Of a stretch of DNA of 17,708 nt, positions 2 to 15,740 are shown piece by piece. Location: assembly GCA_046861655.1 (NCBI GenBank), contig JBHIAI010000027.1:1-17708 (forward strand), given 5' to 3'. The position numbers and the translations under genes are program-made. The stretch comes from Fidelibacterota bacterium (lineage in GTDB: Bacteria; Fidelibacterota; Marinisomatia; Marinisomatales; S15-B10). Below the pieces are notes generated by a model, which searched no databases, was not told the DNA's origin, and saw only the letters and a program-made list of their open reading frames with translations. Position 1 is the first letter of the stretch, and each line of letters opens with the position of its first letter.

Positions 2-3000
2 GGTTACTTCTACCGGCAGGTTTATCTTAACTATCTCCTCCTGGGAGATCCGGAACTCTCCTTCCATACCGATAACCCCGTGCCGCTGGTGGTAGAGGGG
101 CCTTCTTTTGTCTCTCTGGGTCCGTCGGAGCTGTCCCTCACAGTCTACGACACTTCCGGGGGTCGTAATCGTCCCGTAGGCGGGGCTACGGTATGCGTCA
201 CGAAAAAGGGGGAAGTGTACGTTATGGGGACCACCGGTTCATCGGGGGAGGTCACCCTCCCCGTGGCTCCCCTTACGCCCGGCGATCTCAAGATTACGGC
301 TACCGGGCACAACGCCCGCTCTTTTCTGACTACAGTGGAAGTTCGGGGAATTCAGAGACCTTTTGCCTACTGTGGAGGTTTGGCGGTGATGGACTCCACG
401 GGGGGAAACGGGGACGAGATCCTGAATCCCGGCGAGACGGCAACCCTGGGGATATCCATCACGAACAGCGGGGGCTGGGTCCTGTCGGGAGGAAAAGATT
501 CTCCTCTCCATGTCAGACTGGTCAGCCCGTCCAGTGACGTGGTGGTTTCAGACGACCATGTGGGGATGGAAACCTCCATCGCTCCAGGAGACAGTGCCTG
601 GGCGTTTTTCGAGGTGGTCGCAGCCAGGAATATTCCGGATGAAACGGTTGTTCCTCTTCATGTGACCATACGTAATCGCGATGGGGTTTGGGAGGACACG
701 GTCAGGGTCACTCTGCGCTCCCCGGACATCCGCCACTTTCTCAGCCGGTACGATGAGGCCGAAGGAGAACGGCAATGTTGGTTGACCGTGGTCAACGAAG
801 GAACGGGGAGTGCCGAAGGAGTTTCGGGGAACTTGACGATTCTCTCTGGCAATGGGATGATCCGGGATGGAAGGCACCTCTACGGCTCCATGGAGCCGGG
901 AGGGACGGAAACGGGACGTTTCCGGTTTCGCCTTTTTGATGATCTTACGAACATGGTTCTTCGGCTGGCATTGACGGACCGGTACGGTCAAAGCTGGGAG
1001 CATGACTTCGATCTGGTGGCCCCAACCCATCCCCAGGATCTTCAGTTCTCGCCGCACAAAGAAGCGATCCGGTTATTCTGGAAGCCCAGCGAGGAGCCGG
1101 ATCTTGCCGGATACACCGTCTTCCGCAGTGACTCTTCAGGGGGACCCTACGTCCGGGTACTCGACACTCCGCTTTCGAACATAGCCTACTACCAGGATGC
1201 GGGGCTGGAGGGGGGCCAATTCTACTGGTACCGGGTCTCTGCGGTGGATTCGTCCGGGAACGAAAGTGTGTGGTCTGACAGCCTTCCCGCCTGGACCGAA
1301 CAGGGGTTCGCCCGGGGGTGGCCCGTCACCCTGGATACCCGGGTCAGGTCCGGTCCGTCCATGGTGGACGTGGACAGGGATGGAGATACGGAAATGTTTG
1401 TGGGGACGATGAACGGAACCATCTATACTTCCATGGTCGCAGATGGAAGTCCGTCTCCTCTTACGGCTTTTGTCCGGCCGGGGGGGGCGGTCTGGAGTAA
1501 GCCGGCCGTGGATGACATAGACAGGGATGGAAACCTGGAGATGGTGGTAAGCCTCTGGAACGGGTCCGCGGGGGGGACGGTCCAGGTCTGGAAGATCCAG
1601 GATTCCGACGGGGATGGAATCCCCGATCCGGCCTCGTCGGGGTGGCCCACCGATGCGGTCAGCAAGGCCGGTTTCATCTCATCGCCCGTTCTGGCGGATG
1701 TGGATGGGGACCCCTATCTGGAAGTGATGGCCATGGACCTGGGGGGCCAGGTCTTTCTGTGGGAGCACGATGGATCTCTCAAGGAGGGGTGGCCGAAAGT
1801 GGCGGGACACGGGTCCGGAAGAGGACATCTGTACGCCACGGTGGCGGTGGGGAATCTGGATGGGGACCCGGAGTTTGAGATTGTGGCCTGCGGAGGCAAC
1901 CGCGCCCAGGACGTGGGCTCAATCTACGTGTGGGGAGAGGCCTCTCTCGATACGCCCCTGGTTTTCCAGGGGCCCGGTCCTTTTTCCGCTTCCCCGATTC
2001 TTGTGGATCTCGATGAGGATGGCGACCTTGAAATCGTGGCCCTCTCCGAGAGACACCGACTGTACGTCCTGGAAAAGGACGGATCCTTTCTCCCGGGCTG
2101 GGAAGAAGGAAAAAGAGTGAATGTCATCAACGTACGGGATCACAATATGATCACCCCTTCTCCGGCGGTGGCCGATCTGGATAATGACGGTCAGCTGGAG
2201 ATCGTCGTCTCCGGGGCCAACAGTGTGGGTGCGTGGAAATCAGACGGATCCGTGGTGGAGGGGTTTCCCCTGACGGGGATAGGGCTTCCCATGTCTCCCG
2301 TTCTGGCAGATGTGGACGGGGATCTGGAAATTGAGATTGTTGTGGGAGCGGGCGACTGGAAACTGTACGCCTTCAACCCCGATGGGTCCAGGGTTCCGGG
2401 ATGGCCAGTGTCGGTAGGGGCACCCATTGTTTCCATCAGCGGGGTGGGAGATATGGACGGGAATGGACGCACGGATATTGTGTGGGCCAGTGATGATTTC
2501 AAGGTTTACCGGTTGGAGACTTCGGGGGACCCCTCCCGCGTTCCCTGGGGCACGTTTCATCACGACATGGCCAATACGGGTCTTTATCATTACCGGAGTG
2601 AACCCCTGGCGGTGGAAGGAACCGTGAGCGATGCGGGAGTATTGCCGTCACGCTACGGATTGGATCAAAACTTCCCGAATCCCTTCAATGCCGTCACCGT
2701 TATCCGGTATGCCCTGGCTGAAGACTCAAGAGTGGTACTCGTGGTTTTTGATCTGCGTGGAAGGAAGGTCAAAACTCTTGTGGATCGAGCAGAACCCCGA
2801 GGGGTTCGCTCCGTGTCCTGGCACGGACGGGATGATTCCGGAAAGCCAGTGGCGAGTGGAGTGTACTTCGTTCACCTGCGGGCCGGTTCTCCTTCGACCC
2901 TTCGGCTTGGCTCAGGGCAGGCAGGCTCCCCGCTTTCACCGGGCTCAGCGGGACGGGCAGGACAAGTTTTCAGGCAAACCCGGAAGATGGTTCTGGTCAG

Positions 3001-3112: not shown

Positions 3113-3187
3113 GGTGGGGGTAGCTCAGCCGGTTAGAGCTCCAGGTTGTGGCCCTGGCGGTCGTGGGTTCGAATCCCATCCCTCACC
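3113..3187 (+). tRNA. tRNA-His (GTG)
   Basis: Cloverleaf: encoded G-1; acceptor GTGGGGG/CCCTCAC with C73; D arm GCTC/GAGC; anticodon stem CCAGG/CCTGG with loop TT-GTG-GC (anticodon 3148-3150); T arm GTGGG-TTCGAAT-CCCAT. CCA is not encoded. Confidence 0.97.
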
Positions 3188-3244
3188 CTGAATCCAGGTT
3201 TGCCCGGTAGAAGGATCGGGTTTTTCGGCAACCCCGTCCTGCTA

Positions 3245-3283
3245 ACACAAAAAAGTCCCGCTTCGTCGGGACTTGTTGTTTTT
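3245..3283. terminator. Bidirectional intrinsic terminator
   Basis: Stem AAGTCCCG (3253-3260), loop CTTCGT, CGGGACTT (3267-3274), with an A-tract before and a T-rich tract after. It lies between the convergent tRNA-His and SMC-like genes. Confidence 0.7.
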
Positions 3284-3303: not shown

Positions 3304-5151
3304 TTACGAAAACGTGTGGGATAGTTTGATTCCCGATTGTTTCTCTTTGGGAACCAGACTGGTGACCACCGTATAGGGAACAAGGGTAAGGATGAATTTT
3401 ACCATCCTCCGGAACCGTGTGGCGTCGTAGAAGGATGTCTCGTCGGCGAGGAACAACGGAAAGTCGGGCAGGTATTCCTGCTTGCCTGCCAGCATGAGGA
3501 CCAGTCCCGCAGTCTCCTTTTCCCCCCGGCTGAGGGAGGCAACCGAGTCGTGGGCTGTAGTATCCTTCTGGCGGCGTACGATTTTCAGGTCGAAGTTATC
3601 GTCCAGGTATATCCGATCGAACACTTCGTCAAACTCCATGAGGGAATACACCTGTGCGATCTGCCGGTTGAACCGCTCCCGGGCCACGCGTTTTACCTCT
3701 TCGGCGCGCCTGGAAACATAGTCGAGCGCCCTTTCAAGAAAAGACTTCTCATCCACAAGATAGTCGATCACGGACCGGACGTCGCCAAGGCTTTCGATTT
3801 CGGTTTTTATGGTCTTCACGTTCTCGTCCAGCCGGGCGATTTCTTCATCCAGGGCTCGCCGCCGGTTCAGCATATTACGCAGGTTCTTATCCACACTGGC
3901 TTCCAGTTCCTGGACCTTCTCAATCAGGGTCTTTCTCTTTGCCACCTTGGTGTCGAGCTCTTTTTCCAGGGATTCGATTTTCTTTCTATCGCCCACCAGG
4001 GATTCGGTGGCTGCCAGGAGCTTTTGCCTCAGTTCGCTCTTGACCCGGATGGCGTAATGGCTCAGGGAATTGTAGTTTCTTTCGATTCTTTCCCGGGCGT
4101 TCCTGAGTTCAACCACAAGGTCGCGAATCTCCCGCTGCTCCCTCTCAAGCTTCTTCTGGCGGTCCCTCAGCAGATCGGGGGTGATGGTCTGGCCGCAGGT
4201 GGGACAGATATCCTGGCCGTATTCCATGTAGTGTTCGAGACCACTGTTGGTTTTGTCCAGGCTGTCATCCACCACAGCGATCCGGCTTTCGGTCTTGGCC
4301 TGCCTGCTCTTCAGGTCGGATAGCTCCCGGTCCAGTTCCTCCAACTCCTTTTCGATGTCGGGGTGCTCCTTCTCGAACAGGGAAACCTCGGCTCTCAGCC
4401 GCCGCTCCTGGGTTTCATTGCTGGAAATGCGGTTCTTCAGCCTCTGGATTTCCCCGTGAAGATGGGCGATCTTGGGGATCAGTTCTCCCAGTTCAAAATC
4501 CAGGGAAGACAGGGTCATGGTCAGTTTCTTGTTTTCCTCCAGGGTCTCGATGGAGACGTCCGAAAGTTTTCCACGTTCTTCCTCCCGCCGGGCCAGAAGC
4601 TTTCCCTTCTCTTGTAGATCGCCGTATAACGATTTCAGTCTGACCAGGGTCTCGTGATGCTCACCCAATTCCTCCCGGGTTCGCTCGAATTCCCGGTTGA
4701 GATAATTCTCCAGGAGCTCGAAATACCGGTAATCTGAGAATTCGAGAATAAGGTTCCGCAACGGTTTTCCCGATTTCAACCGGGCCAGGAGCTCATTCTC
4801 CTCAGAGGCCACGGCAAAAAGGGTACATTTTTTCTCCTCTGGATGGAGGGGTTCTCCCCCAACCGATACCCTGCCGTTACTTCCCGTGATGCGGCGTACG
4901 GACCGGCTGGAATTCCAGGAAAGCTCGGCCCGGGCCGACCGTTCAAAGGCATTCAGGAAATACCGGTGCCGTTCCAGCTCCTGGCTGTCCATGATCAGAG
5001 CCTGAAGGCCCCGGATGATAGAGGTTTTTCCCGCCGCATTGGGGGCGGATATGAGGTTGAGCCCTTCTTTCAATGTGTACTCATGCCTGCCGGCCAGACC
5101 CCCAATGTTTTCCAGCACAAGCTTGAGGTCGCCTTGAGCCGGTGCAGTCAC
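3304..5151 (-). CDS. SMC/Rad50-like coiled-coil ABC ATPase with zinc hook, resembling archaeal Sph/ClsN/Arcadin-4-type SMC-related proteins
   Basis: N-terminal 'LENIGGL...GLNLISAPNAAGKTS' (Walker A); long coiled coil; central CPTC hook (4195-4206); C-terminal signature LSRGE, Walker B FLADE and D-loop SFYD. The GTG start overlaps the upstream TGA (GTGA) and is preceded by an AAGGGAG SD. Confidence 0.88.
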   Translation of the reverse strand: MTAPAQGDLKLVLENIGGLAGRHEYTLKEGLNLISAPNAAGKTSIIRGLQALIMDSQELERHRYFLNAFERSARAELSWNSSRSVRRITGSNGRVSVGGEPLHPEEKKCTLFAVASEENELLARLKSGKPLRNLILEFSDYRYFELLENYLNREFERTREELGEHHETLVRLKSLYGDLQEKGKLLARREEERGKLSDVSIETLEENKKLTMTLSSLDFELGELIPKIAHLHGEIQRLKNRISSNETQERRLRAEVSLFEKEHPDIEKELEELDRELSDLKSRQAKTESRIAVVDDSLDKTNSGLEHYMEYGQDICPTCGQTITPDLLRDRQKKLEREQREIRDLVVELRNARERIERNYNSLSHYAIRVKSELRQKLLAATESLVGDRKKIESLEKELDTKVAKRKTLIEKVQELEASVDKNLRNMLNRRRALDEEIARLDENVKTIKTEIESLGDVRSVIDYLVDEKSFLERALDYVSRRAEEVKRVARERFNRQIAQVYSLMEFDEVFDRIYLDDNFDLKIVRRQKDTTAHDSVASLSRGEKETAGLVLMLAGKQEYLPDFPLFLADETSFYDATRFRRMVKFILTLVPYTVVTSLVPKEKQSGIKLSHTFS

Positions 5152-5662
5152 TTCTTCTTATCTCCCTTCTTCTTTCGCCATTCAGATAGGTACTTTTCCA
5201 CAACCCCCCTGAGGCTTTTTTCGATCCCGGGCGTAAGACCGTCCTCCTTCCGAAGACGATTCGTGTCCCTTTTTAGGAGCTCTATCCCCTCCCGGGCGAA
5301 CTTGGAGAGAAATTCAGTGTTATCTCCTCCAGCTCCTTCAAACTGGGGAGATTCTCTTTCTTCAAAGTCGCCTTCCGGGTGGGATAGTTTGCCTTTCCCT
5401 TTTCCAGTTTCCAATCTGATGCCCTTCTGATTTTGTCTGGAATCTGCCAGCTTCTGAGTTCTTCCGCTACGTAGAGGTCCACGAACATGGGATTGCGGCG
5501 CTTTTCCTTCCAGGCCCACATGAGGGATTTTCCGTCGTTCTTCATGACAAAAACGTTGGGAGCAAGTTTTCCGAGAAACAGGTCCCTTCCTCTTCGTTGA
5601 TAGGCTTTGCGTATCTGGTCCCGGGATCGCCGGTGGGTGGTGATGAGTATCAGAACAGCCAT
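5148..5662 (-). CDS. Hypothetical basic protein, SMC-operon partner; probably one ~170-aa gene split by a -1 frameshift near 5310-5318
   Basis: The ATG at 5662 has a GAAAGGA SD and gives a 126-aa ORF (stop at 5282) ending in a junk-like tail, NFSPSSPGRG. The -1 frame continues EFLSKFAREGIELLKRD...KKK to a TGA overlapping the SMC start codon. Confidence 0.6.
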
Positions 5663-15515: not shown

Positions 15516-15740
15516 ATGGCTGAAAAAGTCAAGACCGTGGGAGTCAGGAAGCAAAGTGGATACCTTTATTACCTCGGCAAAGATGGACATGTTTGGCGTT
15601 CCCAGATGGCCCGTGCCGGAAAAGGTGGCGGGAATGCCCAAAAGGTTGCTGACGCCTGGGTGACACGGGAACAGGGATATCTCTATTTTATTGATAAAGA
15701 TGGAGATGTGTCCCGGGCCAAAATGGCAAGAGGTCGTTAA
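15516..15740 (+). CDS. Small basic protein of two tandem ~35-aa repeats (function unknown)
   Basis: Repeats AEKVKTVGVRKQSGYLYYLGKDGHVWRSQMARAG and AQKVADAWVTREQGYLYFIDKDGDVSRAKMARGR. It has its own promoter, SD and terminator. Confidence 0.9.
   Translation: MAEKVKTVGVRKQSGYLYYLGKDGHVWRSQMARAGKGGGNAQKVADAWVTREQGYLYFIDKDGDVSRAKMARGR

Follow-up and report, generated by a model that had tools for sequence, protein, structure and literature searches.

A bacterial branch of the ASRP module: a three-gene operon in a family of Fidelibacterota

We analyzed a stretch of 17,708 nucleotides (nt), the Fidelibacterota contig JBHIAI010000027.1 of assembly GCA_046861655.1 (hereafter the window), in which a preliminary description had pointed to a gene for an ATPase resembling SMC and Rad50 proteins, coupled only to a small basic gene, as a candidate two-gene system. 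Both genes are present as described: an open reading frame (ORF) of 615 amino acids (aa) with a CPTC hook and short arms, confirmed on the reverse strand, and a 126-aa ORF, which we refer to as the partner gene, whose product is indeed basic (28 Lys and Arg versus 14 Asp and Glu residues). The bacterial unit, however, has three genes rather than two. The partner gene is conserved beside the ATPase gene but is neither its sole companion nor in contact with it, as the 131-nt gap between them is filled by the 3′ half of an overlooked third gene, here called the mini gene (Table 1).

Table 1. Features of the ASRP operon and its convergent flank in the window.
Feature	Coordinates	Strand	Description
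ASRP-family SMC/Rad50-like ATPase	3304..5151	-	GTG start, 615 aa, central CxxC zinc hook, short coiled-coil arms
Mini gene	5148..5414	-	88 aa, TTG start; N-terminal third of low complexity, followed by a pair of predicted amphipathic helices; conserved Trp at end
Small basic partner	5282..5662	-	126 aa; ferredoxin-like N-terminal domain and helical tail (predicted); possible distant relative of haloarchaeal DUF7855
Hairpin, U-tracts on both strands	3253..3274		Probably a bidirectional terminator between tRNA-His and operon; consensus scan
tRNA-His	3114..3188	+	Convergent neighbour of operon; ARAGORN

Judged by its sequence, the ATPase is an ASRP and not an SbcC, RecN, LmuB or arcadin-4 protein. 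It scored 352.8 bits against the ASRP model NF045487 (cut-off 300), aligning with model positions 1–591 of 593, and it has the ASRP layout, with the Walker A motif at the N terminus (APNAAGKTS, residues 36–44), the hook in the centre (CPTC, 316–319) and the signature (LSRGE, 540–544) and Walker B (LADE, 568–571) motifs at the C terminus. The arcadin-4, Rad50 and SMC models gave 27–47 bits against cut-offs of 567–1087 (Rad50 models, 27–43 bits against 700–1087; arcadin-4 model NF053563, 36.3 bits against 860), the RecN model TIGR00634 had no match at the ASRP locus, and the best match in PADLOC was LmuB, at 59.6 bits. In a head-region tree of 55 rows, made as a quick search and containing neither a ClsN nor an LmuB sequence, the 40 ASRP rows formed a single clade (SH-like approximate likelihood-ratio test (SH-aLRT), 100) apart from the SMC, RecN and Rad50-like rows. 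The model score and the tree uphold the kinship with Sph and ClsN that had been suggested for this protein. The arcadin-4 model score detaches arcadin-4 from that group, and Yoshinaga 2022 (PMC9389158) likewise places arcadin-4 with Rad50. The motifs read as had been reported, but they are not degenerate, the altered Walker A and signature motifs being common to the whole ASRP family. Invariant in all 37 aligned rows were the Walker A Lys, both hook Cys, the signature Ser and Glu and two Walker B/D-loop Asp residues, and the Walker B Glu was retained in the seven named or handle-assigned bacterial rows (7/7) and in seven unlabelled rows near them. The closest named relative, at 91% identity, is from Fidelibacterota, and there was no solved ASRP structure among 17 PDB matches. 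We also observed a syntenic Asgard ASRP clade (L060–L067, L069, L070 and L072) in which the Walker B Glu is replaced by Lys in 11 of 11 rows.

The mini gene overlaps the partner gene by 133 nt, and a GTGA overlap joins its end to the ATPase start. Its TTG start codon is formed within Asp-Trp codons of the partner gene, in the −1 frame, 7 nt after the Shine–Dalgarno (SD)-like sequence AGAAGGG. Each of the 30 examined loci with upstream DNA contains a small ORF, complete with start codon, whose end coincides with the ASRP start; a clear partner (E ≤ 2e-7) is present in 28 of them, the two misses being deep, under-cut-off ASRPs, and both small genes lie upstream of ASRP in 28/30 loci, Asgard archaea among them. 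In each of the 17 loci with a long overlap, the −1 frame is open from the mini start and an SD-like sequence lies upstream; under synonymous recoding the chance of an open −1 frame was 0.001–0.37 per locus (0.19 for the window), and the 17 loci represent only three or four lineages. The mini gene is fully separate, with its own SD-like sequence and start, in seven Asgard loci. Compared with locus L018, its non-overlapping part differs at 6.5 of 92.5 nonsynonymous and 23.5 of 27.5 synonymous sites, indicating purifying selection, and 15 pooled Chloroflexota-type pairs gave a nonsynonymous difference (pN) of 0.15 versus a synonymous difference (pS) of 0.64. The identical 88-aa sequence is present as a called gene in the protein collection, and the Trp close to the protein's end is nearly invariant.

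Two other readings of the mini gene were tried and set aside. A programmed −1 frameshift from the partner gene into the mini ORF, considered since the visible overlap contains no ATG, was judged the less likely reading because of the SD-preceded start further up in 17/17 long-overlap loci and the separate mini gene of the seven Asgard loci. A 123-aa version beginning at a GTG (5519) exceeds the ORF in L016 and other loci, where a stop sits just above the start at the Trp position. Among seven metagenome partner loci, two speak against the three-gene unit being universal: in L024 the ASRP frame ends after 13 codons (895–940), and L029 has neither the mini gene nor ASRP, unrelated DNA starting at the partner/mini overlap (790–900).

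The partner had no match in Pfam, NCBIfam or PADLOC; a profile search returned 19 representatives (E ≤ 0.001), of which one was spurious. Its AlphaFold2 model (pLDDT, a predicted confidence score, 91.9) consists of a β-α-β-β-α-β domain followed by a helical tail. Structure matches were generic ferredoxin folds, the best being UreE (Z 7.1); the top Foldseek rows were Cas2 (best E 0.002), and ESM Atlas features gave no usable match. In Cas2 and VapD nucleases, strand 1 of the ferredoxin fold is followed by a conserved acidic residue, and the 43 rows of the partner family contain no invariant acidic column. The haloarchaeal family DUF7855 (PF25253), of similar length and predicted fold, was the partner's top Atlas structural row (template-modelling score, 0.49/0.55) and was matched by 3 of the 43 family members (best 26.3 bits, E 1e-5, below the gathering score of 27); the window protein differs in having no Pfam match, and kinship with DUF7855 is a weak lead. 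H. volcanii carries DUF7855 (control search), and no relative was found on plasmids. The comparisons with RdfA and with LmuA and LmuC that the preliminary description had proposed drew a blank, the partner showing no likeness to the single RdfA compared (probability 0.2%) and no PADLOC match. The two points on which that description had staked its proposal nevertheless came out in its favour, as the ASRP groups with neither SbcC nor RecN and the partner is conserved beside it (28/30 loci). As a separate observation, the 223-aa protein P0029 consists of two tandem partner domains.

ASRP is a true bacterial resident in the host family. Over-cut-off ASRPs occur in 3 of 401 Fidelibacterota genomes (3/41 relatives), all within that family, and the partner was found in exactly these three. 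In one of them, G003, a 218-kb contig carries ASRP, with an over-cut-off SusC receptor gene ~4 kb away and neighbours that differ from those in the host genome, G000; in a sister species, the upstream TolB-like gene is common with the window, and the FG-GAP gene and tRNA-His are on another contig that ends there. The G+C content at third codon positions (GC3) of ASRP is 0.69, the host's 5–95% range being 0.58–0.72 (590 long ORFs), and its score on a measure like the codon adaptation index is at the host's 91st percentile. Between ASRP and its L018 counterpart, nonsynonymous divergence (dN) is 0.048 and synonymous divergence (dS) 0.87, giving a dN/dS of ~0.06. A flank gene of G003 was present in 1 of 15 genomes in an empty-site comparison, and close alignment to a viral contig collection found no viral carriage.

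Three Chloroflexota genomes have 42% identical ASRP copies. One of these is MBC8512469.1, which is among the three bacterial ASRPs for which contamination versus real transfer was left undecided by Yoshinaga 2022 (PMC9389158). In a 30-row tree, from which 10 near-duplicate or partial rows had been dropped, the Fidelibacterota group, the Chloroflexota group and their joint clade each had support of 100/100, and the bacterial clade was separate from the Sph rows. Placement of the archaeal donor had a support of 85 in the 55-row tree, and the 30-row tree singled out no donor. The simplest reading of these relationships would be one old entry from archaea into bacteria, followed by one later move between bacterial phyla; the direction is suggested not by the root of the tree but by the far greater diversity of ASRPs in archaea. 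Of the inter-domain transfer or undescribed bacterial branch that had been envisaged, transfer from archaea is thus the part that gains support, the branch appearing to be an archaeal module that entered bacteria and not a bacterial invention. Upstream of the Chloroflexota-type operon, the translations suggest integrase-like and transposase-fragment-like ORFs in L025 (2–975 and 3238–3513) and L020 (1402–1731).

An over-cut-off ASRP is present in 15 of 251 Asgard genomes; at E ≤ 1e-40 there are 22 matches, of which inspection showed four to be Rad50-like. Partner matches were found in 16 of the 251 (the same 15 and one weak extra), leaving 235 without a match, and these scores lean high because the profile included many of the Asgard sequences. 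In an independent check, a profile of 16 archaeal partners only returned the window partner as its sole match (E 2e-16) among 28,609 segments. Eleven Asgard loci have the three-gene core in a common gene neighbourhood, and since the bare core is what is found both there and in the host family, it is a stable arrangement with no obvious mark of a remnant. Of 27 mapped loci, eight (four Chloroflexota-type, four Asgard) are longer: there the core is preceded by an uncharacterised gene of 242–296 aa, gene X, and a gene for a single-domain AAA+ ATPase, and two of these longer operons (L022 and L073) add a histone doublet at the front and a second X. The model of X (pLDDT 88.6) gave winged-helix matches at both ends; its top Foldseek rows, MAGE/kite, were not significant (E 0.11), and among ESM Atlas features nothing exceeded 0.81. 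No orthologue of X or of the operon AAA+ ATPase was found in the host genome.

Several of these loci hold further genes. L022 (2056–11717), from Promethearchaeota, runs from the histone doublet through two X paralogues, AAA+, partner, mini gene and ASRP to two unknown genes; its partner seemingly has no ATG, GTG or TTG start, and a 665-aa LmuB-like ATPase (108 bits) is encoded 2.5 kb after ASRP. In three Asgard genomes (L059, L074 and L075) there is an additional, divergent ASRP that has a partner and a mini gene to itself. Directly 3′ of the Chloroflexota ASRP lies a conserved gene of 126–135 aa (L019:5476–5856, L020:5715–6119 and L021:5675–6082) with no Pfam or PADLOC assignment.

The host genome also encodes SMC and ScpA, on contigs other than that of ASRP, and the window operon contains no kleisin or kite subunit. 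An adjacent SbcD, kleisin or ScpAB gene had been reported as missing, which we confirm; indeed, sbcD (TIGR00619) was not found anywhere in this one genome, which is 92.8% complete. Elsewhere around the operon, the hairpin scan is not significant alone (six sites in the region, 3.9 expected), and tRNA-His and ASRP are on separate contigs in G003. Integration at tRNA-His was considered and rejected, there being no duplicated 3′ end near the operon and no tRNA in 18 related loci. Near the end of a 974-aa FG-GAP gene, a palindromic-looking stretch (2876–2975, plus strand) supplies ~25 extra in-frame residues, and part of this region has 75–86% matches on contigs C41 and C54; it is possibly a small repeat element inserted in the coding sequence. 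A 74-aa basic protein encoded at 15516–15740 (plus strand) has two internal repeats (GYLY Y/F ... DG. V. R .. MAR) and no NCBIfam match.

Part of this system is already known, in that the ATPase family has been published and a close orthologue of the window protein bears the ASRP label at NCBI; what the window adds is a bacterial branch of the ASRP module. The window protein shares with the ASRP family (NF045487; PMC9389158), which includes Sulfolobales ClsN and haloarchaeal Sph, a length of ~610 aa, a split head, a central hook, altered motifs, monophyly and coexistence with SMC. It differs in belonging to a two-phylum bacterial clade and in being coupled to two small genes, whereas Yoshinaga 2022 (PMC9389158) reports no consensus among genes flanking ASRPs. 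Its bacterial contigs and flanks amend the archaea-only range given for the family and leave its membership unaffected. In a tree that covers Sph but not ClsN, it falls apart from the Sph rows, and it shows no RdfA likeness. The haloarchaeal RdfA–Sph pair (PMC10869688) similarly has a conserved uncharacterised gene directly upstream of the ASRP gene, but there it is one gene and not two, and RdfA (262 aa in L030) is unlike either small protein. Lamassu (LmuABC; PMC12663957) likewise has a short SMC-like ATPase after a small gene and, as is likely here, a head- or arm-bound small subunit; its ATPase is of another family, no LmuA effector is recognised in the window, and neither small protein matched the PADLOC models, LmuA and LmuC included. 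SbcCD and Rad50–Mre11 share the zinc hook and split ATP-binding cassette (ABC) head, and differ from the window protein in its shorter arms, its separate clade and the nuclease partner, which was not found. Our literature search found no paper on the bacterial ASRP clade or on these partners; the neighbour table of Yoshinaga 2022 and Krishnan 2020 lay outside its scope, and either may anticipate part of what we describe.

How might such a unit work? In Rad50 and SMC proteins, two chains join through the zinc hook and ATP is sandwiched between the heads, so that DNA is clamped or bridged. The account we favour, to which we give about an even chance, is that the operon is a three-gene ASRP module, archaeal in origin, that has become an established accessory of a single Fidelibacterota family and of some Chloroflexota and acts as a zinc-hook DNA-bridging system accessory to SMC–ScpA. 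An ASRP dimer joined by the hook and by ATP-bound heads would clamp or bridge DNA, and the two small proteins, their synthesis coupled to that of the ATPase by the overlapping starts, would be its fixed subunits. The helix pair of the mini protein would hold the head-proximal coiled coil, by analogy with the C-terminal part of SbcD and with long LmuC, which have been modelled near the ATPase head (PMC12663957), and the basic partner would assist in loading or holding DNA. As the complex contains no nuclease, it would tether, compact or quieten chromosomal DNA beside SMC–ScpA, as does ClsN in Sulfolobus, which binds and organises chromosomes (PMC11344861). The winged-helix protein and the AAA+ ATPase of the longer operons may be an optional loader and remodeller. 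Family membership, bacterial residence, the three-gene unit and purifying selection are established by the data; in favour of the wider account we count the fixed neighbourhood of the core in 11 Asgard loci, as expected of a housekeeping unit, the histone doublets in the L022 and L073 operons, the winged-helix matches of X, the co-occurrence of partner and ASRP, and the invariance of the motifs.

Other observations weigh against a settled bridging accessory. The ATPase has no Gln or His at the expected Q-loop and H-switch sites (sites inferred from the general ABC layout), so that ATP turnover may be slow. ASRP is very unevenly distributed, with copies in 2 of 14 other family genomes and 1 of 351 sampled Dehalococcoidia, a pattern seen more often with defence genes, and the single haloarchaeal Sph locus read, on Haloferax pHV4, has rdfA upstream instead. 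The bacterial mini proteins show weak homology to their archaeal counterparts (HHalign probability 74%): an all-archaeal profile did not recover the window mini protein at E ≤ 5, and of the narrower profiles, a Chloroflexota-only one placed it first (E 0.35) and one from an Asgard subset second (E 3.3) of 28,609, neither significantly. Contact between the three proteins is itself a proposal made by analogy. Finally, ClsN works in cells that have no SMC whereas this host has SMC and ScpA, and Yoshinaga 2022 (PMC9389158) expects a different function where SMC is present.

The operon could instead be a Lamassu-like module for DNA-sensing defence or against mobile elements, in which ASRP would recognise foreign replication or the ends of DNA, the effector would be either the partner, with its Cas2/VapD likeness, or the product of some other gene elsewhere, and the AAA+ and winged-helix proteins would be optional regulators. 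We regard this as somewhat unlikely. The patchy spread, the movement between phyla and the differing neighbours in G000 and G003 are consistent with it, as are the LmuB and Cas2 top matches, the LmuB-like gene that follows ASRP in L022 and the weak scores of the operon AAA+ ATPase with IetA and TRIP13; moreover, Lamassu clades without an effector exist (PMC12663957). However, the protein scores 353 bits as an ASRP against 60 as LmuB, an effector domain is recognised in neither small protein, four flanking genes tested in G000 and G003 had no PADLOC match, the Cas2 match reflects a generic ferredoxin fold in a family with no invariant acidic residue, and synteny is fixed in the 11 Asgard loci. 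A role in DNA repair, with ASRP holding broken ends in the manner of RecN or Rad50 and nucleases supplied from elsewhere, appears decidedly unlikely. It would suit the Rad50-type hook and the searches of G000, which found no sbcD, and of G000 and G001, both of this genus, which found no recN, a gene that 12 of the 14 other family genomes have; yet G003 has RecN and ASRP together, eight ASRP-less genomes of the same sample also have no recN, and, the two genomes being 93% complete and kin, the absence of recN amounts to at most one loss.

Two further explanations carry little probability. Deletion of either Sph3 or RdfA abolishes rods in H. volcanii (PMC10869688), and Sph belongs to the same family as the window protein, so a cytoskeletal or cell-shape factor of this kind might be imagined. 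We consider it very improbable here, given that the tested RdfA bears no resemblance to either small protein (probability 0.2%), that the bacterial clade does not group with Sph, that the longer operons contain histone and winged-helix genes, and that the host is a walled Gram-negative bacterium (TolB-like and SusC neighbours). Archaeal contamination or a decaying relic we find scarcely credible. In its favour, all hosts are uncultured assemblies and two metagenome loci, L024 and L029, are broken; it is largely refuted by the bacterial genes that share contigs with ASRP, among them the SusC gene 4 kb from it on the 218-kb contig, by the synteny with the sister species, by a GC3 within the host range and by the low dN/dS.

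More broadly, and tentatively, it is possible that ASRPs are the central component of a type of SMC-like holocomplex not described before, comprising a ferredoxin-fold protein, a helical mini protein and, optionally, a kite-like protein, an AAA+ remodeller and a histone. Such a cassette would move among archaea and into at least two bacterial phyla, organising or silencing DNA or guarding against foreign DNA, and the bacterial three-gene form would be its minimal machine, open to reconstruction in a laboratory bacterium. The two-phylum bacterial clade, which includes one of the three sequences of Yoshinaga 2022, bears on whether bacterial ASRPs reflect contamination or transfer. The small proteins are two candidate subunits for many non-haloarchaeal ASRPs, and so bear on the question, listed as unresolved by Bell 2022 (PMC9764264), of whether any proteins partner ClsN. 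Moreover, a compact bacterial operon of 2.4 kb opens the biochemistry and function of ASRPs to tests in E. coli or B. subtilis.

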